Below, piece by piece: positions 12,859-56,102 of a stretch of 64,000 bases of DNA. Under the pieces are notes generated by a model. It did no database searches, was not told the origin of the DNA, and saw only the letters and a program-made list of their open reading frames with translations. How positions within the stretch are numbered: position 1 is the stretch's first letter; each line of letters begins with the position of its first letter. The translations under genes were made by a program, and so were the position numbers. The DNA comes from a virus: IMG/VR virus record IMGVR_UViG_3300022745_000032, positions 3,788 through 67,787 of that record. The stretch is one strand, 5' to 3'.

Positions 12859-13290
12859 TTACTCAACATCCTCAACCTTAAGGATACCGGCAATTTCCAT
12901 TTGGCGCAGGAAGCCGATGGAAAGAGGGTTGTTATCGCCAAGATCGGAGATCTCAAGCGGCTTGATGGCCTCAACATTCGAGTCCTGATCCAGCAGATCG
13001 GAGAGATCCCTCTGGAAGGATTCGAATGCCGGGGTGTTGGGCTTGATTGCAATCCCGAGGGACTTGCGATTGGGCTCACCAGCAGGGAGGTCGAACGCCT
13101 CCTCCCCATACTTGCGAATGAGCGCATCGCGCTCCTTGTCGAAGAATTCGGCATCACCCTGGATCTTGCGCAGAATGGTGGAAACCTTCAACCGGGTACG
13201 GAACGGAAGGAACGAATCCTTCTCATCTCGCTTAACCAGCTCATTGAGAACAAGCTGGGCCTGAACGATTTTATCGAGTTTTAGTGCCAT
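12859..13290 (-). CDS. Hypothetical phage protein (DUF1617-like)
   Basis: LPFRTRLKVS...FFDKERDALIRKYGE pattern common beside fibre genes. Confidence 0.5.
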   Translation of the reverse strand: MALKLDKIVQAQLVLNELVKRDEKDSFLPFRTRLKVSTILRKIQGDAEFFDKERDALIRKYGEEAFDLPAGEPNRKSLGIAIKPNTPAFESFQRDLSDLLDQDSNVEAIKPLEISDLGDNNPLSIGFLRQMEIAGILKVEDVE

Positions 13291-13341
13291 AGGAGTATCT
13301 GGAAGGAAATTGGATCAGCCGCTTTAGAGGAGTCAAGCTTT

Positions 13342-13842
13342 TCAGAAAACCGACAGGATGATGGTCTTGGGATCAACCTTGATCTCGCTTCCATTTTGGG
13401 GCTCAACGAACACGGGGCCCTTTTCGGTTATGAAGACCACGACTGCATGGCATGACTTGGGGCCGTCAATGAACCATACGGTCCCCATGGCCAAGGATTG
13501 GGCCTTGGTGTTGGACTGGAAGGTTGAGATGAAGTAGTCGGTCTGGGTCTTGGCGACAAAGTAGGAGGCGAAGTGGTTGCAGTCGAAGCGGCTATCCCAA
13601 TGGGCCACACCGTCCTTGAATAGGGCGGATTTGTACTTCTCGTAGAGGGCCGGGATTGCTGCGCTTGAGACTACCGCATATGATTCATCCCCCCAATAGG
13701 TTTGACCACCGGCATAGACCGCCAACTTGGGCAGTACCTCGCCGGTGGTTGGTTTTATCTCATTGCGCGGCGAGCAAGCCGCCAAGATCAAGATTACCAG
13801 CCCTATTGGGCCGCAACCAAGCCAAGATTGGCGAGCACGCAT
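13342..13842 (-). CDS. Lipoprotein with papain/transglutaminase-like Cys-His-Glu motif
   Basis: Lipobox LAAC; FDCNHFA...HAVVVF...VEPQ. Start codon uncertain. Confidence 0.55.
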   Translation of the reverse strand: MRARQSWLGCGPIGLVILILAACSPRNEIKPTTGEVLPKLAVYAGGQTYWGDESYAVVSSAAIPALYEKYKSALFKDGVAHWDSRFDCNHFASYFVAKTQTDYFISTFQSNTKAQSLAMGTVWFIDGPKSCHAVVVFITEKGPVFVEPQNGSEIKVDPKTIILSVF

Positions 13843-14081
13843 GACTCGATGTACGGCTGGTCGGACTGGTTGGTCCAGTTGGCCCACTGGTCGGGCGTCA
13901 TGGCTACGGAGCCGCTGGCGACCGTGGTTTCGGTCTTGGCATCGTCGTTGGCCACCTTGTAGAGGGCGTAGTTGAAGGTCGGAGTGCCGCCAAGGGCGTT
14001 GCTCCAAGTGTCCGAGATGAAGAGCCGCGAGGCCGCAGGCGGGAAGTCAGGATTGGTCGGGGTAAGGATGTCAATTTTCAT
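13803..14081 (-). CDS. Small fibre-associated hypothetical protein
   Basis: Follows the fibre gene; MTPDQWANW...YIESCVLANLGL. Confidence 0.55.
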   Translation of the reverse strand: MKIDILTPTNPDFPPAASRLFISDTWSNALGGTPTFNYALYKVANDDAKTETTVASGSVAMTPDQWANWTNQSDQPYIESCVLANLGLVAAQ

Positions 14082-14090
14082 GGAGGAGGA

Positions 14091-15761
14091 TTAGGCTGCG
14101 GCGATGGTAGTGACGGTGCCCGAGGAGCCACGGTACTTGAGCGCACCTGACTCGACGTAGAGCTGGCCAACACCAGCCGGAGACGATGAGGGGGCGGTTC
14201 CGTTGGCCATGACGATCACCTTGGCACCCGAGGTGCCTGCGTCTGTGGTGGTGCCCAGCAGCAAATTGGCGTTGCCCGTGAGCGACATCAGGCGATCATT
14301 TCCGTAGAAGCCCCAAGTCAAGGCATTGGAAGTAGACCCGCTCGACGAGTAGTAGAAGGCATCGTAGCCGCTGTTGTTGGTGGAGCGTCCAACACCAACC
14401 ATACGGAGCACGAGATGCCCAGTGGTTAGATTCGTGGCTTCAAAGTATGACGCCCAGACATACGCACTGTCGGTTGTGCCATAGATCGAAAGGATACCCG
14501 GTCCACCAGTCGTCGAAAAAGCGGAAGTGATGGTGACCCGACCCGTACCGAGACTCGCGATGTCGAGATTCTGATTGGGGGACGTGCCCGACGCAGAGAT
14601 CGTGGGGCCGTTGGTACCGTCGCCGATTTTGAGGCCCGTCGGCCCGAAGAACCCTTGATACCAGCGCAGGGCTGAAGTCCCCACCGTTTTTCCGCTGGTG
14701 TTATCCGCAGATGGGGAAAGCGTCGTAGTTACTGCAAGTGAACCCGGCGCTGTAATGGCACTCGGAAGACTCAGCGTGATCGCGCCGGTAGTAACGTCGG
14801 TGCTGATCTGGTTGGCCGTTCCGGTGACAGACGTGACGCCACCACCACCTGCAACCGTGGCCCACGAGGAAGTCGTGCCGTTCGTGGTCAGGTACTTCCC
14901 GCTATTACCCGTCTGCGACGGAAGACCGGCGTCAGCATTGACCGTGATCGTGTTGACCGTGCGGGTGAGTCCGGTCGAGAACGTGAGCGGGACCTCGTAC
15001 GCACTCGAAGCGGTGTAGGCAGCGGAACCGAGCGTGCCACCCACCCCAATCGCCAGCGTAGCACCGTCCGTCGCAGTGAATGTGACCGTATTGCTCGCGG
15101 TCAGCGTCTTGCCATTGGCGATCGTCAGCGTGCTGCCCGTGGCAGGCTGGGTGATCGTAACCTTGTTGAAGCTGGTAAGGCCGTAGATCGAAAGAGGGAG
15201 GCTAAGCGTAATTGCACCAGTGGAGGCGCTGGCGGTGATTTGGTTGGCGGTTCCTGTAACAGACGTGACGCCGCCGGATGGGGTGGCCCAAGTGCCGTCC
15301 CCGCGCCAGAAGGTGGTAGAGCTTGCTCCCGTTCCGCTATTGAGGTTGTTGACCGAAAGGTTGCCCGTGACACCCGTGGAAAGAGGGAGGCCTGTAGCGT
15401 TGGTTAAAACGACACTGGCGGGGGTTCCAAGGGCGGGTGTAACCAACGATGGGGAGTTGAACGTACCACCACTCAAGGTCTTTCCCGTGAGGGTAATTGA
15501 GGTCGGAAGCGACAGGGTGATGGAGCCCGTGTTGGCCGAAGCTGAAATTTCATTTGCCGTACCGTAAACGGCGGTTGCTCCAATGTTGGTGACCGTGACT
15601 GCGCCCGTGGCTGCAGAGACCGAGATGCCTGCACCGGCCAGCAGGGAGGTAACACCACCACCGCCTCCACCCCCATCAACAATCAGGGCCGTATTGGTGG
15701 CAATGCGCTTGAGCAGTTCGGGCTCGTTATCGTTCCATTCCGGGTAAACGCCAGTGGCCAT
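14091..15761 (-). CDS. Head/tail fibre protein
   Basis: Thr/Ser/Gly-rich; repeats [12 protein letters not shown]...TGAITLSLP and [10 protein letters not shown]; C-terminal [20 protein letters not shown]. Confidence 0.7.
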
Positions 15762-17494: not shown

Positions 17495-18283
17495 TCAAGC
17501 CAGTAATTTGCTGCGAACGCAGTCGATGCCCGCAGTACCCTTGATTCCGTGGAGCCATGAGGGCTTGAGTTCTTGGCCGGAAAGGGGGTTGTCGGGGTGG
17601 GTGTGCTTCCTTGGGGCAAAGAGATGGTTGCAGCCGAGAAGGGGGTTGTCGGGGGTGTTTAGGCGGTAATCGGAGTAGATTAGCCTTGAGGGGTGGGCGA
17701 AAGGCCTGATCCTGCTCCAGAAGTGCATATCCCATCCCCACATGGGAACCTCACCATCAGCTAGTTCAGGAATCTCATGGACCAACTTTGGGTGGAAGAT
17801 GAGGTTGCCGTTCATGTGGGAGGAGGGCGGATTGCCATCCCTTGAGCCGTCCCAGTGGCCCGAAGCGAGCTTTCCAGAGGCGACGAACTCATCCAGGATG
17901 TCGTCTGCCCATGAAAGTGTGAGGGGGACGCAGTCAGCCTCCATCAGCAGGGCTCCTGCGTAGGGGAAGTTACCATCATCGTAGAGCTTCCTTACGTCCA
18001 TGAAGGCATCCATGGCTTGGGCGTTGGGGCCATAGGGCCAGCCAGAGCGTTGGCGGCGGCTCCTCATCCCTCCCACGTTAAAGGCCTTTTCTAAGGCTTT
18101 TAAGGCCGTCAATTCCCTGATGTTGGTATCATACCGTGGGTATAGGAGAAAATCGATTCTAGGGGCATAGGATTGCGCCAAATCAGCCATTAGGTTCATC
18201 AGCCCATTCATCTGGGCAAGATCGGCGTGCCAGAACTGCAAAACGCCCAAAAGGCGGGGCTTATTTTCTTGTGGCGCGTGCAT
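17495..18283 (-). CDS. Putative glycosyltransferase (GT-A-like)
   Basis: GWPYGPN...LLMEADCVPL...HMNGN...GWD...LHGIK. Confidence 0.6.
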   Translation of the reverse strand: MHAPQENKPRLLGVLQFWHADLAQMNGLMNLMADLAQSYAPRIDFLLYPRYDTNIRELTALKALEKAFNVGGMRSRRQRSGWPYGPNAQAMDAFMDVRKLYDDGNFPYAGALLMEADCVPLTLSWADDILDEFVASGKLASGHWDGSRDGNPPSSHMNGNLIFHPKLVHEIPELADGEVPMWGWDMHFWSRIRPFAHPSRLIYSDYRLNTPDNPLLGCNHLFAPRKHTHPDNPLSGQELKPSWLHGIKGTAGIDCVRSKLLA

Positions 18284-19025
18284 GATGATCAACCCATGGC
18301 AGGAAGTCCTTGAGCCTGCAAGGCCAGAGGGTATTGGCCTGAAGGCGCTTCCAGTGCTCGACCGCATTGGTGTAGCCGTAAAACTTCTCCTTGTAGGCTA
18401 CTTGAGCCTCACTATGCCAGCTGAAGTGGTCGAAGACGAGGTCGTGCTGGCGGGTAATGTGCTTAGGCATCATGTTGCCCATGTTGAGATTAAGCACTGG
18501 TGGCTCATGCTTGTTCCAGCGCATCCGAGTGTTGAAGCGCCAAGCCCTCACCCACTCATAGTCGTTGTTTCCGTAGCAGTTCTCGCCAACCGTAACCACA
18601 TCAGGACCAACGTAATAATTGCAGTATAACTGCATCCTGGCTACGTCTGGGTGAACCTCGAAGAGCTGCACGATCTTGGTCAGCTGCTCAGCCGTCCATA
18701 CCTCGTCGCAATCAAGTTGGACAAGTACGCCATCGGACTTGAATGCCGAGGTGCCTGCATTGACCATCTGGGTCTTGTTGTCCCAGAATGGGCTTTGGAT
18801 GACGGAGACATTAGGCAGGGAGGATAGCTCTTTTAGGTATTCGGTTGTTCCGTCGGTACTTAGGGACGGAGTAAGGCTGCGACACCAGGACGTATCCCTT
18901 GTGTTGCCTGCCTGCCCCTCCACAATACTCCACCTCCACGGAATCCTAAGCTCTTGGAATACTGGTAGATGCCTCTGGATGTAGGGCATCCCATTGAGGA
19001 CGATGGTGAGGATGTTGAGGGTCAT
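18261..19025 (-). CDS. Glycosyltransferase family 2-like
   Basis: TIVLNGMPYI...IVEG...STDGTTEYL...QLDCDEVW (DxD). Confidence 0.8.
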   Translation of the reverse strand: MTLNILTIVLNGMPYIQRHLPVFQELRIPWRWSIVEGQAGNTRDTSWCRSLTPSLSTDGTTEYLKELSSLPNVSVIQSPFWDNKTQMVNAGTSAFKSDGVLVQLDCDEVWTAEQLTKIVQLFEVHPDVARMQLYCNYYVGPDVVTVGENCYGNNDYEWVRAWRFNTRMRWNKHEPPVLNLNMGNMMPKHITRQHDLVFDHFSWHSEAQVAYKEKFYGYTNAVEHWKRLQANTLWPCRLKDFLPWVDHHARATRK

Positions 19026-19696
19026 GCCGAAAGCAGGTTCTTACCACTCAACTCCCGTAGCTCATCCGGGGTCAGTTTCTGGGCATAGAATACGGGATCG
19101 CTAAAATTGATCGGCCTTTCCCGGTCATAACCGAAGGAGAGTCGGCGGATTCGTGCTGTGCCTAAGGCGTCCTCCAACTTCTGGAACTTGGTCTCGGGTA
19201 GGTTGGCGGGATCGCCATCGGGGCCCATTGCTAGGTAACGGGAGACAAACTCCGGGATGAAGCGATGCCGGATTAGGAAGAGGCTTTGACCGCAGGCCAT
19301 GAAGGGAGGGGAGGTCATCTTCCTGCCAAACACCATATCCCCATCGCCAAGGTCCTTGTAGACTTGGGATACCCATGGTCCAAAGGCCAAGGCGTCCTGC
19401 TCAAGGTAGAGTAAATCTGCCTCGCCAGAGTAGGCGATCATGGCCAGCGCAATGACTCCAGCCGACCATCCGCAGAAGTCATGGGGCTTGGACTTGTTGA
19501 GCAGATCGCCAACATGGCCAAGGTTACCCGGTACGCAGATCCTATTGACGTCAATTGGACCGTTGGGATTTGCGCCAACCTCAAGCTTGACCACGGCATT
19601 GGGCCTTCCGGTTAGATTGGATAGGTTATGCTGCCTCCAGATTCGCTCCCACTCCCTGCTGACGTTGAACCGTCCAGTACCAAGGATGTAGTTCAT
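19022..19696 (-). CDS. Putative glycosyltransferase-like protein
   Basis: DLLYLEQDALAFG DxD-like motif; island context. Confidence 0.5.
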   Translation of the reverse strand: MNYILGTGRFNVSREWERIWRQHNLSNLTGRPNAVVKLEVGANPNGPIDVNRICVPGNLGHVGDLLNKSKPHDFCGWSAGVIALAMIAYSGEADLLYLEQDALAFGPWVSQVYKDLGDGDMVFGRKMTSPPFMACGQSLFLIRHRFIPEFVSRYLAMGPDGDPANLPETKFQKLEDALGTARIRRLSFGYDRERPINFSDPVFYAQKLTPDELRELSGKNLLSA

Positions 19697-20133
19697 TTGG
19701 TGGCCTCCATTCTGAGGGTTTCTGCGGAATCGAGAGCTTCCCCGATTTGCCGGTGATGGCCATCAATCTCCTTTCTGCCCGTCCTCTCGATAGAGGAGAA
19801 GCCAGCGGCCTCAAGCATAAGCCGAAGGGACTCCTCCGCATACACCATCAGGTGTCCGTGGTTGCAGATAATGTCGCAACGTTTATTGAGATCCAGTCGA
19901 GCGAGTTCTGGGACGCAGATCCTGAAGACCCCACCTGGCTTGAGGATGCGCCTGACTTCGCACATAAAGCGGAAGCCTTGGGGGCCGGTCGTGTGCTCGA
20001 CGACGTGCTCGGCAAGCACTTGCTCCACTGAGTTGTCGGGGAATTTGAGGGGCTTGGTGATGTCATGGTCTGGGTACTCGGTGTTCATCCAGCCCTGAAG
20101 CTGGTTTCCGCCTGATCCAAATTGAACCTTCAT
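19693..20133 (-). CDS. Class I SAM-dependent methyltransferase
   Basis: VQFGSGG...EHVVEH...EVRRILKPGGVFRICVP. Confidence 0.85.
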   Translation of the reverse strand: MKVQFGSGGNQLQGWMNTEYPDHDITKPLKFPDNSVEQVLAEHVVEHTTGPQGFRFMCEVRRILKPGGVFRICVPELARLDLNKRCDIICNHGHLMVYAEESLRLMLEAAGFSSIERTGRKEIDGHHRQIGEALDSAETLRMEATK

Positions 20134-20354
20134 GACTGCTTGAAGGGAAGGCTCCACTGGTCTCGGAGGGCGAGGCAGGCCGTGTAAACGGCATCTTTTC
20201 GGTCATGGGATGTATTGCCCTCTGCCAGGGTCATACCATCCGTGAAGCAGCACTTCCAGCCATTGGGGCCGCTCTCCATTGAGCACCCGAAGCCCATGGT
20301 CCTTGCGGCGGACATGATATGGGCGCAGAATTCCTCCTTGTGGTCTTGGCTCAT
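20130..20354 (-). CDS. Hypothetical protein
   Basis: ATGA-coupled small ORF. Confidence 0.5.
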   Translation of the reverse strand: MSQDHKEEFCAHIMSAARTMGFGCSMESGPNGWKCCFTDGMTLAEGNTSHDRKDAVYTACLALRDQWSLPFKQS

Positions 20355-35803: not shown

Positions 35804-36145
35804 TCAGGATGGCTTCTTGTCAACTGGCTTTTGGTACCTGTCATCTATGGCCGTGCCATCCGCTTGGTTCTGGAGGACGAACATGAGCCTGCAGGCGGCA
35901 TGGGCCAGGTGGCTCCTGCCCGACTCGCCATCAAAGGTATTCCCGTCCATGAACTCGTAGATATGGCGGAGGGCGCAGGAGAGGTTCCTTGAGACCTCCA
36001 TCCCCTTCCTGTAATTGTTGAAGTCACGGTACTTGTGATGGCCGTAGGCTTGGACCATGGAAATCTCCCTCAGGGCTGCCGGAGGGAGGTTGGCCAGGGG
36101 CGGTTTGCCATCATCGTAGGTGGCGGCTTTAGCTTCCGGTGTCAT
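35804..36145 (-). CDS. dATP/dGTP diphosphohydrolase domain protein (DUF5664-like)
   Basis: YDDGKPPL...YGHHKY..NNYRKG...RH...DGESGRSHLAHAAC. Confidence 0.85.
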   Translation of the reverse strand: MTPEAKAATYDDGKPPLANLPPAALREISMVQAYGHHKYRDFNNYRKGMEVSRNLSCALRHIYEFMDGNTFDGESGRSHLAHAACRLMFVLQNQADGTAIDDRYQKPVDKKPS

Positions 36146-37514: not shown

Positions 37515-37723
37515 AGCCAAGAATCGATCAGTTCTACCTTGATCCCCGGTTTGGCCGGATCAAGGCCGCAGGCGAGGAGGGCGATGCCTACCTCTTTCAC
37601 GGCTACGAGACCTTGAGCAAGGGGCGGATCCTGGAGTCCAGGTACGCCTACAAGATCAACCGGGACGAGTTCAGCAAACGGGTTGAACTCGGCCTTATCC
37701 AACCCTCCGTTCCCCCGCAATGA
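37511..37723 (+). CDS. Hypothetical protein
   Basis: ATGA-coupled. Confidence 0.5.
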   Translation: MKPRIDQFYLDPRFGRIKAAGEEGDAYLFHGYETLSKGRILESRYAYKINRDEFSKRVELGLIQPSVPPQ

Positions 37724-38130
37724 AGCTTAACGACTACCAATCAGGCGCCCTTAGAACCGCCCCGCAAGGCCACGACACCAACCGGGAGATGCTCCATGCC
37801 GTCCTGGGCTTGGTCACGGAGGCGGGGGAGTTGGCGGATGCCTTGAAGAAGCAGCTCGCCTATGGCAAGCCCGTTGACCGGGTGAACTTGATCGAGGAGG
37901 CGGGGGACGTGCTTTGGTACCTGCCGTTGTTGGCGAGGGCCCTCGGCACCGACCTTGAGACCATCGGCAGGATCAATTTGGAGAAGTTGAGAAAGCGCTA
38001 TCCCGACAAGTTCTCGGAGGATCTCGCCAACCATCGGACGTTGGAGGTGGAGAGGGAGACGTTGGAGAGGCTCTCGACCCCTTCCGCCCACCGCAACATC
38101 TCCCTCCTTGACCACGGGGATGAGTCATGA
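37720..38130 (+). CDS. mazG: MazG-like nucleotide pyrophosphohydrolase
   Basis: LGLVTEAGELAD..KK...EEAGDVLWYL...NLEKLRKRYP. Confidence 0.9.
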   Translation: MKLNDYQSGALRTAPQGHDTNREMLHAVLGLVTEAGELADALKKQLAYGKPVDRVNLIEEAGDVLWYLPLLARALGTDLETIGRINLEKLRKRYPDKFSEDLANHRTLEVERETLERLSTPSAHRNISLLDHGDES

Positions 38131-48430: not shown

Positions 48431-49090
48431 ATGACCAGAAAGATCTACGTCGCGGGCAGCATGGACAGCGTGGCCAACTGGATGGAGGGGGAGGTTGTCC
48501 GAAAGCTAAACGAGGCTGACGTCGTGGTGTTCCCGGGAGGGGCCGACGTCGATCCCAAGCTCTACGACCGAACCTCCAACCCCAACACCAACTCCAGCCC
48601 GACCCGAGACACCTTTGAATTGGGCATCTTCAATGAGGCCATCCAGCTGAAGAAGCACATCGTCGGTATCTGCAGGGGAGCCCAGCTCTGCTGCGTCAAG
48701 GCGGGTGGAATCTTGGTCCAGCATCAGGCCAACTACAGCCCCTCCCACAAGATCAATACCATCGACAAGACGAGCATCATCACGACCTCCGACCACCACC
48801 AAGCCCAATACCCCTGGCTTCTCCCCAAGGACAAGTTCAGGGTGCTGGCCTGGACCCAAGACTACTCACCCTTCCATGAGGACGGTGATGGCAGCGAGAT
48901 GGTTGTGGGGGTTAAGGAGGTTCCAGACGGCAAGGAAGTCGAGGTCTGCTACTACCCCGAGATCAAGGCGCTGGCCATCCAAGCCCACCCCGAATGGGAG
49001 TACTTCAAGCGGAACTCCGACGCCGCTGCCGGTGCCTCGATTGAGTGGTATCGCAGCAAGCTCAACCGCCTGATCTACAACACGATCTAA
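48431..49090 (+). CDS. Class I glutamine amidotransferase / peptidase C26 (PuuD-like)
   Basis: FPGGADVDP..Y, GICRGAQ, HHQA, QAHPE triad. Confidence 0.9.
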   Translation: MTRKIYVAGSMDSVANWMEGEVVRKLNEADVVVFPGGADVDPKLYDRTSNPNTNSSPTRDTFELGIFNEAIQLKKHIVGICRGAQLCCVKAGGILVQHQANYSPSHKINTIDKTSIITTSDHHQAQYPWLLPKDKFRVLAWTQDYSPFHEDGDGSEMVVGVKEVPDGKEVEVCYYPEIKALAIQAHPEWEYFKRNSDAAAGASIEWYRSKLNRLIYNTI

Positions 49091-49104
49091 CCGGAGTGAT
49101 CAGC

Positions 49105-49425
49105 ATGAGACAGCTAGTTATTACCCTGCCAACTAATTGGTCCAGGACGCTTTGTGGGGTTGCGCCAGCAGGATACGTATATGAGTTCGTCTCCGACACG
49201 CTTGCTACCGCCTGGTCATCCAACCGATACTACTCAATCGATGGGATTTTCATTGGGACTACGCCACCACACCTGACCAACATCCCGGTCATCGACGCCA
49301 TTCAAGACTTTAAGGTCGGCTGTAACCACATCGTCGCCTACAAGTTAGTTAAGACGGGATCAGCGGCCCAAGCCAAGCAAACTTCCATTTCCAAGATAGC
49401 ATCCATCCCATGCCCACTACCATAA
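49105..49425 (+). CDS. PxPLP-tail protein 1
   Basis: GGAG upstream of the ATG; ends ISKIASIPCPLP*. Confidence 0.6.
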   Translation: MRQLVITLPTNWSRTLCGVAPAGYVYEFVSDTLATAWSSNRYYSIDGIFIGTTPPHLTNIPVIDAIQDFKVGCNHIVAYKLVKTGSAAQAKQTSISKIASIPCPLP

Positions 49426-49607
49426 AAGAACTCAGGAAGAAGCTAAGGCAGCGAGAAGCCGAACTCGTTCGGGTCAAGTTCGAGGCCCGGGAGATGAGAT
49501 CCATCCTGCTTCGCATCCACTCGGCCAGAATCGGCATGAGTGAGTCTGGTGTCATCCAGGGACTTAATGACATCGACTCATTCTTCAGGGAGCCCCATGT
49601 CAACTGA
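49410..49607 (+). CDS. Small coiled-coil protein
   Basis: Fits the operon. Confidence 0.45.
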   Translation: MPTTIKELRKKLRQREAELVRVKFEAREMRSILLRIHSARIGMSESGVIQGLNDIDSFFREPHVN

Positions 49608-49791
49608 TCGTCTCTTGGCTGAGGTTAATAGGGTTGGCAGGAAAGGGTCTGCGGCAATCCTTGGATGCAGCGAAGAGTACGTGGAGTCCTGGTTTCCGAG
49701 GATAAACTTCCGGAGCGGCAGGATTGAGTCCGGGCTTGAGCCTTCAGCCGGATTCACGGCTGCAGCATTGGCGGAATTAAGCCGCCACTAA
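49597..49791 (+). CDS. Small HTH-like protein
   Basis: GRKGSAAILGCSEEYVESW. Confidence 0.4.
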   Translation: MSTDRLLAEVNRVGRKGSAAILGCSEEYVESWFPRINFRSGRIESGLEPSAGFTAAALAELSRH

Positions 49792-49868
49792 CATCTTCCA
49801 TCCACGGTGCCCGATACGTGGATGGTCTTCAACATCGGGTGCGTTAACGCAATAAGAGAAAGACAGAT

Positions 49869-50282
49869 ATGAACAAGTACTACCTCCAGAATGGCTCCGG
49901 CCTTTACTTCGTTGCTGGTCGCGGTTTCTCCGCTTCCAACAAGGGTGATGCGTCGCAGCTGACTGCCGCCGAGATCCATAGCCTCCGGGCCTTGGGCTTC
50001 TACGGCACGTCCGTCGATGCCACGCGGAACTTCACGGTGAACTACGTTCGCCCGCAGGACCGCACGACCTATGGTGGCCGCGCCGCCGTCTCCAGCAATG
50101 CGAACAATCCTTCGTCGAAGGTGTTCGCGTCGATTGGCGAGGCCGTCAACCACGCCAGCCGCAACCTTGAGTCCAACGGCCACGTTGGCTTCTGGGTGAC
50201 CGAGACCTCCAAGGCCGTCACGCACTACGTGTCGGTTAAGGAGGACCCGCGCGGTCTGACCTGCCCGATCGAGAACAAGTAA
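49869..50282 (+). CDS. Hypothetical, probably highly expressed protein
   Basis: Strong codon bias; followed by a stable hairpin. Confidence 0.6.
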   Translation: MNKYYLQNGSGLYFVAGRGFSASNKGDASQLTAAEIHSLRALGFYGTSVDATRNFTVNYVRPQDRTTYGGRAAVSSNANNPSSKVFASIGEAVNHASRNLESNGHVGFWVTETSKAVTHYVSVKEDPRGLTCPIENK

Positions 50283-50299
50283 TCGTCGGTGGCAGTAAT

Positions 50300-50325
50300 A
50301 GCCCCGGGGCTTCGGCCCCGGGGCT
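50300..50325 (+). terminator. Perfect C(UUCG)G hairpin (terminator or stabiliser)
   Basis: AGCCCCGGGGC-TTCG-GCCCCGGGGCT; weak U tract. Confidence 0.6.
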
Positions 50326-50358
50326 CATCCCTTTCAATCATCAACCAAGTCCAATATC

Positions 50359-52374
50359 ATGGCGTCAATCAAGAAGGAAGAGGAGGAGTCGAGGAGCTTT
50401 TATTCCATCGACGGGTTCCTTCCGCTCGCCGGTAGCGTGCCAAGCATTCCCGGTGACATGCTGGCCAACATCAAGGGTGGATGCACACCCGACACCGTCA
50501 AAGCCGATGATTCCTACGTTGGTAAGTCGATCTCCAAGATCACGGGCGATCGCAATTACCGATTCTACCGCAGGACTGAACTCATCAAACCCGGGCAAAT
50601 CTGCCCCACCTACATGTCATCCATGATTAAACTTGATGGACGCAAGACTGGGCGTCCGCGTCCGACCGCATGCAGCGAGAACGCCAGTGCGCTGCCCGAT
50701 AATGTCGATCCCAAGACGACCGTCTCCATCTACCGCTTTACCTATCCTGATTCCGTCAGGGCTGATTGGCAGGGGTATGCCGGTTTCGGCTGGCTCCATG
50801 TCAGCGAGAGGATGTACTTCACCAACGATTTCTTCTTCTGCCAGATCGACGGAACCTTGGCCAGTCGCTCGTTTGGAGTCATAGCCTACACCGGAGCCAT
50901 GATCAACAACCGCCATATTAAACTTGGCGAGTGGTTCGTCTGCGATTACGACGGCAAGGCCTATCCCAAGAGCAGGCTTGTGGTTGTCAAGGGTCTTGAG
51001 GGCGATGTCAACATGAGCGATGCCTGCGCCACTGAGCGCTCGTTCATCTGCGACTACGACAAGGCACGCTGGGAGCGCTCTTGCAGGGTGCATATCTCGT
51101 CCTCATCCAAGTACAAGGTTGTCTCGCGCAAGTATGTCAGTGGCGAGGGGGATCCCTTCATTCTTTGCCCAGAGTGCTCCAAGGCATTTGAGACCTCGGC
51201 CAATGCGGTCCTGCCAAGGGATGACATGGGCGTTGTCGCCTGCACTGGCTGTTACGAGACATTCATGGCAAGGGATGTCATCAAGGCCCATAACTTCACG
51301 GGCTATCCCAAGCCCATCTTCCACGCCATCCGCCAGCCCCTCATCACAGAAGAGGCCGCAGCCAAGGCCGAGGAGTTCATGAGCAACATGGGCCATCCCA
51401 TGGCCGCTGAAGGCTACCTAAGGTCCCTCAAGAAGTCCCGGTATCTTTACGGCATTGAGTGCGAAACCGAGTTCACGGGTCGTGAGGATGGCCTCAGGGC
51501 CAAGCTGGCCCTTCAGGCCTGGAAGGCCTTGGGTCAGGACTTCTGCATCATCAAGCATGATGGCAGCCTTTCGGGCAAGCGTGATCCAGAGCCGGGTGAG
51601 AAGGTGCGTCGTGGTGGCGACTTTGGCTTTGAGATCGTCTCCGCTCCATGTGACATCGAGACTCACCGTGAGCGCTGGCGCAGGCTCGAATCCATGCCCG
51701 ATTACAAGCAGCTCAGGGCATGGGATGTGGGCACCTGCGGCCTGCATATCCACGTCAGCCGAGCCCCGATGACGTCCCTCCAGATCTGCCGGTTGTCCTA
51801 CATGATCAACCATCCCAAGCTCAAGGGCTTCATTGAGATGGTGGCGGGTCGGGCGGCTGCTAGGTACAACAAGTTCGTACCCAAGCGCCTGCCTGATGGC
51901 ACCAAGCCCAACATCGACAAGGACAAGTACACCGCCATCAACCTCAAGCATTCGGCCTCCATTGAGTTCCGCATCTTCCGTGGCACCGTCAACTGGCGTC
52001 ATATCATCCGCAACCTTGAGTTTGTTGCCGCCTGCGTGGCTTACTGCCATCCTGCCGACCGATCCCTCAAGGATCTTGAGTCCCATGAGAAGTTCGTGAC
52101 CTTCATCTCCGAGCATCGCAAGGAATGGCCCGAGCTGAATCGCTGGCTTGATCTGCAGGAGGAGTTCAAGCGCATGATCAAGCCTGCCAACAAGGGTGCC
52201 TTTGGCCCCAAGGACAACCGCACCAAGGCTGGCGAGAAGCCCATTGTCCTTGAGGAGGTCCACGATCCCGACCGAGTTCCCGCCAAGCCCAAGCCTAAAC
52301 CCGCCAAGCTTGAGCCTGCAACCCTGGCTCCGTCGGGATTCGATTTCGAGGAACTCATCGACGACAACGCTTAA
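50359..52374 (+). CDS. Putative amidoligase (COOH.NH2 ligase) with N-terminal Cys-rich repeats
   Basis: YGIECE, KHDGSL, GFEIVS, TCGLHIHVS, KYTAINL, IEFRIF; CDYD twice, CPEC, CTGC. Confidence 0.88.
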   Translation: MASIKKEEEESRSFYSIDGFLPLAGSVPSIPGDMLANIKGGCTPDTVKADDSYVGKSISKITGDRNYRFYRRTELIKPGQICPTYMSSMIKLDGRKTGRPRPTACSENASALPDNVDPKTTVSIYRFTYPDSVRADWQGYAGFGWLHVSERMYFTNDFFFCQIDGTLASRSFGVIAYTGAMINNRHIKLGEWFVCDYDGKAYPKSRLVVVKGLEGDVNMSDACATERSFICDYDKARWERSCRVHISSSSKYKVVSRKYVSGEGDPFILCPECSKAFETSANAVLPRDDMGVVACTGCYETFMARDVIKAHNFTGYPKPIFHAIRQPLITEEAAAKAEEFMSNMGHPMAAEGYLRSLKKSRYLYGIECETEFTGREDGLRAKLALQAWKALGQDFCIIKHDGSLSGKRDPEPGEKVRRGGDFGFEIVSAPCDIETHRERWRRLESMPDYKQLRAWDVGTCGLHIHVSRAPMTSLQICRLSYMINHPKLKGFIEMVAGRAAARYNKFVPKRLPDGTKPNIDKDKYTAINLKHSASIEFRIFRGTVNWRHIIRNLEFVAACVAYCHPADRSLKDLESHEKFVTFISEHRKEWPELNRWLDLQEEFKRMIKPANKGAFGPKDNRTKAGEKPIVLEEVHDPDRVPAKPKPKPAKLEPATLAPSGFDFEELIDDNA

Positions 52375-52399
52375 ACCACAACCCAACCATATCCAGATC

Positions 52400-53575
52400 A
52401 TGTGCATCATCATATCGAAGCCCGCTGAAAAGAAACTGCCCAAGTCCATCTACGAGGAGTGCTTCCGCTCCAACAAGGATGGGGCGGGCATCGCCTACAT
52501 CGAAGATGGCAACATCGTGCTCAAGAAGGGCTTCTTCAACTTTGAGGAGTTCTACAAGGCCATCGCCGAGAAGGAGGATCATGGCATGCTGATCCACTGC
52601 CGCATCGCCACCCATGGTGTGGTCGGCAAGGATAACTGCCACCCGTTTACCTTCACCTCGTCGGACAAGAAGTACCAGTGGGTCATGGCCCATAACGGCA
52701 CACTTGACTGGCGCTCCACCAAGGAGATGTCGGACACCGCCTGCTTTGCCGAGGATCTGCTCTGGCCCATGGTTGACCATGTTCCGGATGTCTTCGACAA
52801 GCCGTTCGGTGACGAGATCATGGACAAGATGCTCGGAGCCAGAAACAAGATGGTCGTGGTGCGCTACGAGCTGGCTAAGAATGAGTACACCACCTACATC
52901 TTCAATGAGACCGCAGGCAACCGCCATAATGGCTGCTGGTTCTCCAACATGAGTTGGAAGCCCTACCGCGCCTCCACCACTGGTTACGGCTATGGCTACG
53001 GCAGCAATGTCCAATATGGGATGGGCGGGGCCTACGACGATGGCGACTTCTACGGTCACAAGGACGAGGACAACAGCATCTCCGTTTATGGCTGGCGGAA
53101 GAACAAGCACGGCATCTGGATCAACGACAAGGACAAGAAGGCCCAGTTCGATGGCCAGTTCCACGACATCAGCAAGGTAACCAATATCGACAATGCCGAC
53201 GAGCTGGACATCCTCAAGGCCAATGGGGATGATGCCAATGACTCGCCCTCCAACGAGCCCAAGGACAAGAGCAGCAAGCCCAAGCTTGAGCCCATGTCCA
53301 GCGATCGCAAGAGCCTCATCCGTCGGGGTTTCATCCATGTTCGCACGACTGGCCAGCTATCACGGGATCTCAAGTCCGAGGACAGAGTTGCAATCATGCG
53401 GAAGGATTTCCGGGAGCACTTTCCTGAGAAGTTTGCCAACGCCTCTGGGATTGAGGCGTGCGATACCATCATCCTTGGGATGAGCGAAGACACCTTCACC
53501 TCATCCTGCCTGCGTATTGCCGACAATCGCAAGGCTGCCAAGCGCGAGGAGGAGCGTGCAGCCTCAGCCACCTGA
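52400..53575 (+). CDS. Class II (Ntn) glutamine amidotransferase
   Basis: MCII, NKDGAG, HCRIATHG, NCHPF, HNG, SDT. Confidence 0.9.
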   Translation: MCIIISKPAEKKLPKSIYEECFRSNKDGAGIAYIEDGNIVLKKGFFNFEEFYKAIAEKEDHGMLIHCRIATHGVVGKDNCHPFTFTSSDKKYQWVMAHNGTLDWRSTKEMSDTACFAEDLLWPMVDHVPDVFDKPFGDEIMDKMLGARNKMVVVRYELAKNEYTTYIFNETAGNRHNGCWFSNMSWKPYRASTTGYGYGYGSNVQYGMGGAYDDGDFYGHKDEDNSISVYGWRKNKHGIWINDKDKKAQFDGQFHDISKVTNIDNADELDILKANGDDANDSPSNEPKDKSSKPKLEPMSSDRKSLIRRGFIHVRTTGQLSRDLKSEDRVAIMRKDFREHFPEKFANASGIEACDTIILGMSEDTFTSSCLRIADNRKAAKREEERAASAT

Positions 53576-53587
53576 TGAGCGGACGGG

Positions 53588-54166
53588 ATGGTGGGTCACA
53601 ACATGTCACAAATCAAGACGGACGGCGGTACTGTTGTTAGGTTCAGCGCCATAGAGGCCAACACGTACTACCACAGGCACCTTCTCAGCCTGAAATCATG
53701 GGGCGAACTCAAGGACGATCAAGCAGTCACGCTTGGGGACATCATCACGCGGATCAGGGTAGACACCGTCCTGTGGGCTGAGTGGATTTGCTTCAGGCAA
53801 AGGTACGGGGATGCATTCATGAAGCCCGATGATCCACTGGCACTGAGCAAGGCAGACACCCGCCAAGCAATGGCATTCAGGGTTCCGAGTCCGAACTACG
53901 TGTGCACTGGCAAGGATATACGAGAGATGTCCGGGGTTGGAAAGCGGGTGAAGCTGTTCAGATACACTCCGATCATGTGCACCTTCAATCAGTTCAATTC
54001 GTGGCTGATTGGGATCATGATCGACCCAAAGCTGATGCGCAAGCCGACGCTGTCCATGCTGAAGTCAAAGCTCAACCCCGCGTTTGTCGATCTCTCGTCA
54101 ATACCGGACCCAAGTCCCGAATTCACTGTAAGTCCGATTGCTTCGCTACCCGTTCCACTTCCATGA
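53588..54166 (+). CDS. PxPLP-tail protein 2
   Basis: Ends VSPIASLPVPLP*. Confidence 0.65.
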   Translation: MVGHNMSQIKTDGGTVVRFSAIEANTYYHRHLLSLKSWGELKDDQAVTLGDIITRIRVDTVLWAEWICFRQRYGDAFMKPDDPLALSKADTRQAMAFRVPSPNYVCTGKDIREMSGVGKRVKLFRYTPIMCTFNQFNSWLIGIMIDPKLMRKPTLSMLKSKLNPAFVDLSSIPDPSPEFTVSPIASLPVPLP

Positions 54167-54723
54167 TCCCAATCGTCCTCATCGACCCAAAGTCCATCAT
54201 TAGGCACGGGGATTTAGTCTTCAGTGCAGACCTCACGGCTGAACAGCTGCTTTTGGCCATAAGGCCAGGTTCCATCCTGATGCATGATCAAACGAACGTA
54301 CTGCACGGATTTGGAAACAAATTCATCTGCGTGGCATTGGGGTGGAGCAAATCTAGACTAGAGTCCATCGACCATGGCCCAGCCGCCATCATCAGGTATG
54401 GTTCGTTTATTAGGAACGATGGAACCGCTGAACCTGAAGCCTTCAAGAGCCTTGGATTACTGATTCGGGTGATTACTGATGGAAATCCATCGAACCTGAA
54501 GGTACCAGTTGTTGAAGTGATGAAGAACTACATCGAACGACCCATTCAACGAGATCAAGTTGCTGGGACTCTCTCCATCAATGAGATTGAGTCCATTATC
54601 TCAAAAAGTATTTGCAGGAGAGTTAAGGATTTGCCGAACTACTACCATGCGCACACATCCCAATACGCGGTAATGAGCGCGGCGATCTCCCCAATAGCCT
54701 CCCTGCCATCCCCACTGCCATGA
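54163..54723 (+). CDS. PxPLP-tail protein 3
   Basis: ATGA-coupled; IIRHGDLV; ends ISPIASLPSPLP*. Confidence 0.65.
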   Translation: MIPIVLIDPKSIIRHGDLVFSADLTAEQLLLAIRPGSILMHDQTNVLHGFGNKFICVALGWSKSRLESIDHGPAAIIRYGSFIRNDGTAEPEAFKSLGLLIRVITDGNPSNLKVPVVEVMKNYIERPIQRDQVAGTLSINEIESIISKSICRRVKDLPNYYHAHTSQYAVMSAAISPIASLPSPLP

Positions 54724-55163
54724 GCACCGTCCATAACATTTTGGTAACCAGAGAGCCCAATTTCATGATTCGTTCCGGTGATGTCATCGTCCCGGAGGGC
54801 ATGATAGTACTTCATCTAATGTTGTTTTGCGATCTTAATCCCAGTGGGCGATGGCACTCAGACAACCGATGCGGTAAACCAATTCCATTTATCGTCAACA
54901 ACTGGACCGAGAAATCGCTTGGATGGGTCGAGGAGCGGCTGCTCCTCAGCTGCGTCCTTATCAGAGGGGTTGCGATGAAAGACCCAATGTCTTTGGTTTC
55001 AGATCGATTCATCGTTAATTGCGGGCTATTCAAGAAGCTGCCAGGGGACCTTGACCCCAATAAGTCAATGAGCGCGTATTGGGCGAGTTTTTCGATTTGT
55101 GGTGACGATAGGCCCTCCAGATCCATCTCCTCCACTGCCTCCATTCCCGCTCCACTACCATGA
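54720..55163 (+). CDS. PxPLP-tail protein 4
   Basis: ATGA-coupled; MIRSGDVI; ends ISSTASIPAPLP*. Confidence 0.65.
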   Translation: MSTVHNILVTREPNFMIRSGDVIVPEGMIVLHLMLFCDLNPSGRWHSDNRCGKPIPFIVNNWTEKSLGWVEERLLLSCVLIRGVAMKDPMSLVSDRFIVNCGLFKKLPGDLDPNKSMSAYWASFSICGDDRPSRSISSTASIPAPLP

Positions 55164-55621
55164 GCCTGCAAGACGTTGAGATTGTTCACCCTACCAAACT
55201 GGTTACAAGCGGAGATCTGATCATCGACAGATTCCTCAAGGCCTCCAATTTCAGGAGAATTGTCCAGTTGGCAGGAAAATCGACCTCCAGGCTGGCATCG
55301 TTCCATCTCAACATCGATCCCCAGTACTTCATGGATGTGATCAGGTTCAATGCCGACGATTACGGGCTGACGGCTTCGACCGTGTCCCACCACAAGAGCC
55401 AATACGGCAGGCCCTACTGCAGCACCATTACCCCGATAGCCATTGGTGGCATTGGCATGGATGGCTGGATTCAGTGGGGTGTACTTGAGCAGCTGTGCGA
55501 TCTGCTCGATCTGTATCGCATGTACCCAGATGCGCTTGCGCTGGATGTCATTGCCAACCCGAAGAAACATCCGAGGGTCCGCATCTCAGAGATTGCCTCC
55601 ATCCCCGTACCACTTCCATGA
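55160..55621 (+). CDS. PxPLP-tail protein 5
   Basis: ATGA-coupled; LVTSGDLI; ends ISEIASIPVPLP*. Confidence 0.65.
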   Translation: MSLQDVEIVHPTKLVTSGDLIIDRFLKASNFRRIVQLAGKSTSRLASFHLNIDPQYFMDVIRFNADDYGLTASTVSHHKSQYGRPYCSTITPIAIGGIGMDGWIQWGVLEQLCDLLDLYRMYPDALALDVIANPKKHPRVRISEIASIPVPLP

Positions 55622-55818
55622 AATCAACCACCAAATACCCGGATGCAAACGATCCGGGACCTTCCGACATTCAGCTTGCCTCTATGAGGCAGCTTGATGT
55701 TGGCACCAAAATCCGTCGCGGAGATTGGATTGATGACATTTCAGAGTGGGCGGATGGATCAGACACCCATGCCAGAGTGGGTCGTGAGTTCCTGGTTGTC
55801 TGGCGGAAAAAGCAATGA
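55618..55818 (+). CDS. Small protein with IRRGDWI motif but no tail
   Basis: ATGA-coupled. Confidence 0.5.
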   Translation: MKSTTKYPDANDPGPSDIQLASMRQLDVGTKIRRGDWIDDISEWADGSDTHARVGREFLVVWRKKQ

Positions 55819-56102
55819 GTTCACACGATCAAGGGATTAGCAAGGAGCAGCTTATGAAACTTGTGAAGGCTGGAATGGTCAAGCTGGCTGCCAAACAGAC
55901 TGAGTTGACGCTGGATGATAACACCCCAACCGATGAGGAGATCCTTCGGTGGCTCTTTGAGAAGTCAGAGTGGAAGGAGATCATGCCCGAGATCGACGAT
56001 GGCGAGGACATTGAGCAGATCATTCAAGAAACCAAGGACTGGTATGGGAATTTGCTCACTCGTGAGTTTCTGGGCTTGACCGACTCCGATAACCCGTCCT
56101 GA
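55815..56102 (+). CDS. Acidic hypothetical protein
   Basis: ATGA-coupled. Confidence 0.5.
   Translation: MSSHDQGISKEQLMKLVKAGMVKLAAKQTELTLDDNTPTDEEILRWLFEKSEWKEIMPEIDDGEDIEQIIQETKDWYGNLLTREFLGLTDSDNPS

Follow-up and report, generated by a model that had tools for sequence, protein, structure and literature searches.

Why should several phage proteins with little else in common end in the same twelve residues? This question is raised by a stretch of 64,000 nucleotides of viral DNA, here called the window (positions 3,788 to 67,787 of IMG/VR record IMGVR_UViG_3300022745_000032, a single contig of 67,787 bp), in which five open reading frames (ORFs) between positions 49,105 and 55,621, designated T1 to T5, finish with the tag [IV]SxxAS[IL]PxPLP-stop and flank genes for amidoligases and glutamine amidotransferases (GATases). 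The tag exists as a terminal element, is under selection at the level of the peptide, and keeps its place beside the class II GATase gene in a distant relative of this phage. A possible explanation, which we favour tentatively, is that it is a strictly C-terminal recognition peptide with one common reader, most likely a lineage-specific part of the amidoligase/GATase cassette.

A six-frame pattern scan, run on the window and on the full 67,787-bp genome, returned exactly five copies of the tag, all in frame, terminal and on + strand ORFs, with no internal and no sixth copy. The scan confirmed the five ORF ends named in the original prediction (49425, 54166, 54723, 55163 and 55621), and the coordinates (Table 1) agree with its description of four tagged genes as an ATGA-coupled array after the class II GATase gene, with the fifth following the class I GATase gene. 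The tags read ISKIASIPCPLP (T1), VSPIASLPVPLP (T2), ISPIASLPSPLP (T3), ISSTASIPAPLP (T4) and ISEIASIPVPLP (T5), each followed by a stop codon. The C-terminal 12 residues were compared all against all for the 576 ORFs of 40 aa or longer, and every T–T pair (10/10) shared 7–10 of the 12 positions; outside these, just one unrelated pair reached 7/12. The tag is composed of a hydrophobic stretch, phi-S-x-phi-A-S-phi (phi, hydrophobic residue), and an alternating-proline end, P-x-P-L-P-COOH. The tails are hydrophobic (grand average of hydropathicity, GRAVY, of 0.2–1.2) and are preceded by a hydrophilic stretch in every copy.

Conservation of the peptide can be separated from conservation of the DNA by means of the codons. 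The mean identity between copies is 0.67 for the 36 tag bases and 0.27 for the 36 nt upstream; within the tag, the identities at codon positions 1, 2 and 3 are 0.76, 0.82 and 0.42, showing that the tag is not conserved at the DNA level only. Where two copies have the same residue, they use the same codon in 24 of 68 cases, with 22.4 expected from codon usage (Pro10 and Pro12 left out), in line with the earlier claim that the synonymous variation reflects selection on the peptide. The serines are written TCC, TCA, TCG or AGT, differing between copies. On this codon evidence the synonymous sites of the tag are saturated, the two CCA prolines excepted. Because positions 1 and 2 are conserved, synonymous sites are saturated and serine switches between TCN and AGY, selection acts on the tag peptide and not on the DNA, and a recent DNA repeat is ruled out.

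The excepted prolines were correctly singled out in the original prediction: Pro10 and Pro12 are CCA in 10/10 cases, and CCA makes up 0.195 of the proline codons of the phage. Each tag overlaps the ATG of the next gene, through CCATGA in T2–T5 and through an ATG at 49410 within Pro8-Cys9 in T1. Pro12 is thus always CCA in T2–T5, as CCATGA supplies the next ATG, and the Cys9 of the T1 tag follows from the ATG that falls in Pro8-Cys9. Most genes of this phage lack a Shine-Dalgarno site and have C/A-rich leaders (gene starts of the whole window), and an A is possibly preferred at Pro10 in such leaders, a weak explanation for the second CCA. The early block contains nine ATGA junctions, of which four carry the tag (4/9) and five do not (5/9), and the T1 tag ends in TAA rather than at an ATGA junction. 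ATGA coupling therefore does not require the tag, which weakens the alternative that the tag is a translational-coupling element; the final CCA is still explained by the junction.

The gene overlaps could also suit a nascent peptide acting in the ribosome, in which P-L-P, with Pro-tRNA in the P site, would slow termination and tune re-initiation or the fate of the mRNA. Twelve residues are about the length held by the upper exit tunnel, coupling may matter in a phage with so few Shine-Dalgarno sites, and the overlapping ATG and the invariant CCA codons are in accordance with such a role. A C-terminal proline can stall termination (PMC7246954, citing Hayes 2002). TnaC-type peptides are defined by conservation at the protein level within ∼12–17 residues of the P site and a Pro before the stop; both are found here, which is compatible with such a peptide without being specific to it. 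The five tagless ATGA junctions and the absence of an ATGA overlap in T1 speak against this role, as do the five untagged genes among the 10 of 81 in this phage that end in Pro, and the carriers stay open over 106–192 aa, which a leader peptide does not need. We regard a nascent-peptide function as very improbable.

Short shared tails do arise in phage genomes as by-products of translation initiation. An alignment of the COOH-NH2 ligase of the cassette with 70 database homologues was used to fetch 80 IMG/VR loci, in which 45 pairs of ORFs agree at 7 or more of their 12 C-terminal positions (15 pairs in a control window shifted by 14 residues). Most of these pairs belong to arrays of 60–90-aa genes ending in LENK, FKGNK, F[KR]GN or VERLV (loci L302, L294, L319, L290 and L342); others are plain paralogues (L266). 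The codons of LENK-, FKGNK- and VERLV-type tails spell TTGGAGAAYAAA, AAAGGNAAY or GAGAGGTTGGTN just before the next ATG, and by this reading the tails, F[KR]GN included, are the Shine-Dalgarno site of the next gene plus spacer. In L302, 2 of 12 LENK copies use TTA GAA, with no GGAG and with the next start not adjacent, and some peptide-level or ancestral constraint may remain there. The small genes of these five loci interleave with larger genes, including cassette enzymes.

The tag resembles these tails in being common to neighbouring small ORFs and in overlapping the start of the following gene. A by-product of the conserved initiation region of the next gene would accord with the frequency of such tails in cassette loci, with the final CCA that gives the A of ATGA, and with the C/A-rich leaders. 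However, the known tails are 4–5 aa long and of the GGAG type, whereas 12 residues are kept here, with free third positions (0.42) and serine switching between TCN and AGY. The tag contains no Shine-Dalgarno site, T3, T4, T5 and the ORF at 55618 have no GGAG-like site within 24 nt upstream of their starts, and only four of the nine ATGA junctions are tagged. The tag was rejected as a ribosome-binding-site by-product on these grounds, and we consider such an origin the most improbable of those weighed here.

Among the loci, one (L267, a 26.4-kb IMG/VR contig with a G+C content of 0.52) was found to be syntenic with the window. Its gene order is ligase, X, class I GATase, 137-aa protein, amidoligase, class II GATase and two ATGA-coupled ORFs, followed on the 3' side by homologues of the 230-aa protein, the exonuclease and further genes of the window. 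The identities are 36% for the ligase, 32% for X, 39% for GATase I, 34% for the 137-aa protein, 33% for the amidoligase (with most of its N-terminal extension in the alignment) and 41% for GATase II. The two ORFs directly after the class II GATase gene, Ta (117 aa) and Tb (163 aa), end in SLSSYASPLPLP and TLSSYSECLPLP (...YASPLPLP and ...YSECLPLP), both with CCATGA, and these ends align to the tag of the window with one gap. The bodies of Ta and Tb show no likeness to T1–T5 or to each other (z≤1.13). In all seven carriers (T1–T5, Ta and Tb) the tag is located at the extreme C-terminus (7/7); conservation across the tails increases toward the last residues, and P-L-P is invariant (7/7). The tail has thus stayed terminal and directly after GATase II while the enzymes fell to ∼35–40% identity and the carriers diverged beyond recognition. 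L267 has no counterpart of T1 or Y; T1 is therefore a later addition elsewhere in the cassette.

A relaxed tail pattern was run over 99 loci that had been picked independently of the tag (1.81 Mb, 5,625 ORFs of at least 60 aa) and matched Ta and Tb only. The motif is thus terminal in L267, the sole relative found, where it again follows the class II GATase gene of a ligase cassette, and so passes two of the refutation tests set in the original prediction. It is not a general companion of the ligases, with a single tailed locus among the 93 other loci that bear the cassette. GATase II and exonuclease alignment searches led to the L267 contig again and to no further relative, and none was obtained with the full-length amidoligase, or with the exonuclease or the 230-aa protein as single queries. 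A 22-kb fragment reached via the primase (G001) was set aside, as the tag region is missing and it contains no tags. Ligase homologues at 38–43% identity to the query sit on contigs of 67–75 kb. The contig of the phage with the best ligase match (L266) stops before any amidoligase; after its class I GATase gene it encodes two paralogues of the 137-aa protein (13287–13955 and 14011–14484), which share a C-terminal domain of ∼90 aa ending in TNPVIG..RTNR.

The bodies of the carriers are much less alike than their tails. Without the tag, the best BLASTP match in a database of the five sequences had an E-value of 0.086, and whole-body Smith-Waterman alignments gave z-scores of −1.1 to 2.6 against 300 shuffles. 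A weak likeness exists among the N-termini of T3, T4 and T5, where comparison of the first 45 residues gave z-scores of 4.7, 4.0 and 3.5 (score reached by 0, 2 and 2 of 300 shuffles), and over the same residues the remaining seven T–T pairs show no likeness (z≤1.05). The earlier statement that the bodies share little similarity holds for these seven pairs and has to be qualified for the N-termini of T3–T5. The latter appear to have arisen by old tandem duplication; the visible kinship of T1 and T2 with them is limited to the tail. No family matches were found for the T proteins in Pfam, PHROGs or PADLOC, and a profile search of the PDB with the tails gave no matches at E≤10. T1–T5 have no membrane-like segments.

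In principle, the tail could be what has best survived of a common ancestor: a structural part of the C-terminus in a fast-diverging paralogue family, without a tag function of its own. The tandem arrangement and weak N-terminal likeness of T3–T5 point in this direction, as do the tail-sharing pairs of L266 that proved to be plain paralogues. On the other hand, the bodies of T1, T2, Ta and Tb are unlike any other carrier, the tail follows polar, proline-rich linkers and not a hydrophobic core, and its conservation rises toward the final residues. We consider this origin improbable.

Codon log-likelihoods, trained on the other genes of the phage, were 0.107, 0.15, 0.01, −0.043 and 0.20 for T1–T5, and 0.41–0.57 for the four enzymes of the cassette; each T frame scores best of its six frames. 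The low scores are as expected for young or fast-changing genes. T3 was assigned the start at 54163, in the ATGA overlap, and not at 54166. T4 is missing from the database matches of the tail profile, and a gene caller may have skipped it. A 252-aa antisense ORF (54812–55570, − strand) lies over T4 and T5 and has a codon score of −0.044, which equals that of T4 and is below that of T5. Fold predictions gave a predicted local distance difference test (pLDDT) value of 36.3 for T1 (AlphaFold2), 0.34 for T2 with no usable match, and 0.31 for T3 with a best feature score of 0.88 (the latter two in the ESM Atlas).

Table 1. Positions of the cassette genes, the tagged ORFs and their direct neighbours in the window.
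Feature	Position	Strand	Description
COOH-NH2 ligase type 2	46099-46956	+	PF14395, E 1.3e-11; phrog_3815, 8e-49; 285-aa database copy; first cassette enzyme
X	46952-47701	+	∼249 aa, start uncertain; no family; homologues in L267, L266 and Leptolyngbya phage Lbo-JY46
Y	47707-48429	+	240 aa; no family; missing from L267
Class I GATase / peptidase C26-like	48431-49090	+	PF07722, 1.1e-17
T1	49105-49425	+	106 aa; tag 49387-49422; stop TAA; starts 14 nt after class I GATase
65-aa ORF	49410-49607	+	ATG inside T1 tag, codons Pro8-Cys9
137-aa protein	49869-50282	+	no family; kept in L267 (34%), as paralogues in L266
Amidoligase_2	50359-52374	+	671 aa; PF12224, 3.6e-6; N-terminal extension of ∼350 aa with two CxxC pairs
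Class II (N-terminal nucleophile, Ntn) GATase	52400-53575	+	starts MCII (Cys2); PF13230, 3e-7; long C-terminal extension kept in L267
T2	53588-54166	+	192 aa; tag 54128-54163; starts 12 nt after class II GATase
T3	54163-54723	+	186 aa; tag 54685-54720; ATGA-coupled to T2
T4	54720-55163	+	147 aa; tag 55125-55160; ATGA-coupled to T3; weakest coding signal
T5	55160-55621	+	153 aa; tag 55583-55618; ATGA-coupled to T4
66-aa ORF	55618-55818	+	untagged; ATGA-coupled to T5; end of tagged array

The window contains the core of a known cassette: a single operon encodes COOH-NH2 ligase type 2, Amidoligase_2 and class II GATase. Homologues of the COOH-NH2 ligase are present in 307 phage records. The classical block, found in Bruynoghevirus Ka1, Lahexavirus LAh_6, a Zobellviridae phage and Kuravirus Paul, has the order ligase, 190-aa protein, Amidoligase_2, class II GATase, small protein, ATP-grasp and GGCT. 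The amidoligase cassette of phiEco32/LUZ24-type phages was reportedly described by Iyer et al. in 2009. As in that type, the three core enzymes form one early operon in the window; unlike it, this phage and L267 lack an ATP-grasp and a clear GGCT gene, and what they have in addition is a class I GATase, X, an amidoligase with a long extension, and the tagged genes. Neither ATP-grasp nor GGCT was found in the window at E≤0.001, and a faint AH_C match (E 0.25, 43721–44560) was the only trace. The identification of X and Y with the two ∼320-aa hypothetical proteins of classical cassettes was rejected (hhalign probability <0.1). A shared tail of this kind was absent from the classical-cassette phages and from Leptolyngbya phage Lbo-JY46, and the small proteins of classical cassettes have no common C-terminal motif. 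The gene list of UFV-P2 (PMC3890496) includes the amidoligase cassette. A full-text literature search from 2019 on yielded genome descriptions and no functional study of the ligase/Amidoligase_2 block.

Two cassette enzymes carry extensions that are kept in L267. In the amidoligase, ∼240 conserved residues (114–354, 50698–51420) with two conserved CxxC pairs are shared with L267 only; a word-indexed search gave no homologue of the extension, a zinc-ribbon-like match at residues 264–302 remained below threshold, and the AlphaFold2 model was unusable (pLDDT 27.9). The C-terminal extension of GATase II (∼190 aa, 53000–53575) contains a GYGYGS low-complexity stretch and several invariant aromatic residues, and no family was found for it.

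The tag was then sought in public sequences. The five T proteins, used as queries in a word-indexed search of 5.8 billion proteins, recovered nothing but T2 and T3 out of 1,943 candidates. When the 30-aa tails were made into a profile and run against 1.84 billion representatives, the matches were T1, T5, T3 and T2, with T4 not listed, as well as two giant proteins (3,694 and 4,211 aa) that lack a single matched stretch. Degenerate DNA patterns of the tag matched 50 IMG/VR loci once each, nearly all by the same off-frame match in frames of at most 29 codons; 87 loci in JGI/ENA metagenomes, once each and with no second tail; and, in prokaryote genomes, at least 120 loci, all singly among those matched and with a longest frame of 101 codons. 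These patterns required TCN at the second Ser, and two of the scans excluded Gly, Cys and similar residues at x, so that such variants would be missed. The best-looking metagenome match (L090) was discarded, as it lies off-frame within a 779-aa ORF. The tag is previously unrecorded as far as these sequence searches go, the full-text literature not having been searched for the motif.

What, then, reads the tag? Both tagged clusters lie directly after a GATase gene in a block of 44 + strand genes, and the slot is kept in L267; both points favour a reader in the cassette. The reader would be lineage-specific because the tag is, and recognition may involve the free carboxylate, since the tail is always terminal and its last three residues are invariant. 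We infer that a partner binds the tag; who this partner is, and whether any chemistry follows, is conjectured in the same way. The tag would then be an address label on a polar linker, carried by a fast-evolving and expandable set of soluble early accessory proteins. Four of these carriers occupy a single slot behind the class II GATase gene, a fifth has been inserted behind the class I GATase gene, and one partner would read them all. Candidate readers would be the amidoligase, through its zinc-ribbon-like N-terminal extension, GATase II, through its C-terminal extension, X and the 137-aa protein. The variable bodies could be brought to the cassette enzymes as adaptors, regulators or substrates, and amidation or ligation might take place on the free terminal carboxylate.

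GATases provide a partner synthetase with ammonia, and the substrates that carboxylate-amine ligases activate are carboxylates, which makes amidation or ligation at the C-terminus chemically plausible. In its strongest form this would mean that the cassette acts on protein C-termini, the terminal Pro carboxylate of tagged clients being activated and then amidated with GATase-derived ammonia or joined to a target amine. We hold this specific chemistry to be a long shot, and the link of the tag to the ligases, as gene order and sequence present it, is suggestive. If true, the phage could use one short tail to modify or conjugate effectors that are themselves exchangeable. Of the original proposal of a recognition, conjugation or sorting tag, the part that rested on peptide selection has stood, helped by the terminal position and GATase II neighbour in L267; ligation, docking or degradation by shared phage machinery would be conceivable roles, and a general association of the tag with the ligases does not hold.

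Several points weigh against a reader in the cassette. The argument from GATase adjacency is post hoc, and T1 lies among other small inserted genes, at what may be an insertion hot spot. Tails of this kind are missing from 92 of the 93 other cassette-bearing loci, L267 being the sole exception, so that the tagged proteins cannot be the general substrate of the cassette. The synteny concerns two genomes, and the common slot may be inherited rather than functional. The invariant CCA at Pro10 and Pro12 shows some nucleotide-level constraint at the gene junction; in L267 the Pro10 position is CCA in Ta and CCC in Tb. Finally, the fold models of T1, T2, T3 and the amidoligase extension have pLDDT values of 28–36, and the flexible linker is deduced from composition alone.

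The 92 tailless loci would fit a recognition peptide whose reader lies outside the cassette, such as a host hub, a host protease (the tag being a C-terminal degron that shortens the life of early proteins) or the procapsid interior (the tag being a capsid-targeting label like that of the T4 internal proteins, at the opposite terminus). The same peptide-level selection and terminal position would be expected, and non-polar C-termini are known degrons. T-even internal proteins likewise combine diverse bodies with one conserved label (PMC3012670). Against an outside reader stand the position of both clusters directly after GATase genes, the slot kept in L267, and the early + strand setting of the genes, which are remote from those for structural proteins; moreover, the T4 label is N-terminal, and by eye the tag is unlike the LAA-type or clamp-binding consensus. 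We consider an outside reader rather unlikely, but a serious rival.

Whichever reader applies, shared terminal labels on unrelated phage proteins suggest a common reader, and few label-reader pairs are known. Here a label without a match in 1.84 billion representatives outlived the divergence of its carriers in two phages. The cassette enzymes, beside which the label always lies, occur in hundreds of phage genomes. Should one of them be the reader recognising the tag, the cassette could be assayed with the tagged proteins as its first concrete clients or adaptors; with a host hub or protease as the reader, the tail would serve as a portable handle to what a set of host-takeover proteins targets.

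As for the genomic setting, structural and replication genes occupy the − strand up to ∼36.8 kb, and 44 early genes, including all tag carriers, occupy the + strand from 36.8 to 61.7 kb. The strand switch is bordered by a gene for a dATP/dGTP diphosphohydrolase N-terminal domain protein (35804–36145, − strand; PF18909, 2.2e-26) and, on the other side, one for a MazG-like pyrophosphatase (37720–38130, + strand; phrog_229, 6.5e-45). Such PF18909/MazG-like pairs accompany base-replacement pathways, for instance those of 2-aminoadenine genomes. On the 3' side of the replication genes lie a family 2 glycosyltransferase (18261–19025, − strand) and a methyltransferase domain protein (19693–20157, − strand), adjoined by ORFs without family matches. 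A single tRNA-Arg gene (anticodon CCT, 44751–44826, + strand) is located just 5' of the cassette. Positions 49000–56000 gave no megablast matches to phages, and tblastn with T3 gave none. The uncultured phage is present in two freshwater metagenome runs, the first of which is probably its source and the second of which yields identical short contigs with zero variants; no RNA sequencing runs containing the phage were listed. The leaders without Shine-Dalgarno sites, the freshwater occurrence and the X homologue in a Leptolyngbya cyanophage are hints of a host, perhaps cyanobacterial, whose translation starts without Shine-Dalgarno pairing.

Among known terminal sequences, SsrA-like degrons have a non-polar C-terminus of the LAA type, read by ClpX or Tsp; the tail here is hydrophobic and ends in P-L-P. 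The tag was rejected as a Pup- or ubiquitin-like tag, in which one modifier has a Gly-Gly or Gly-Gly-Gln/Glu end, as five different bodies end in P-L-P here; a PafA- or E1-type ligase was likewise rejected, the cassette ligases matching PF14395 and PF12224 only. PafA, the Pup ligase, is an ATP-dependent carboxylate-amine ligase that meets a defined protein C-terminus. RimK acts at the C-terminal sequence of ribosomal protein S6 (PMC10375531). This phage may resemble both systems in that a carboxylate-amine ligase would meet a defined C-terminal sequence; in contrast, the substrates of RimK and PafA are single proteins ending in Glu or Gln, and five to seven different proteins ending in Pro would be involved here.

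Unrelated proteins docked on one hub are exemplified by the sliding-clamp-binding tails of T4 gp43, gp33 and gp55 and by the tails of SSB. The T carriers differ in having no DNA-handling families, the tag is unlike the clamp-binding motifs, and no clamp gene was seen in family scans of this phage. Membership of the T4-type capsid targeting system, with an N-terminal label cut by the prohead protease, was rejected, as the tag is C-terminal in 7/7 carriers. The T4 label is read by the scaffolding core, whereas the tag stands in an early enzyme cassette. In the internal proteins of T4 the short terminal label is the only conserved part, and some of them are encoded side by side (PMC3012670). The likeness to the capsid targeting sequence lies in one label shared by diverse, fast-evolving phage accessory proteins, and the tag thus fits a known theme, that of terminal address labels on phage proteins.

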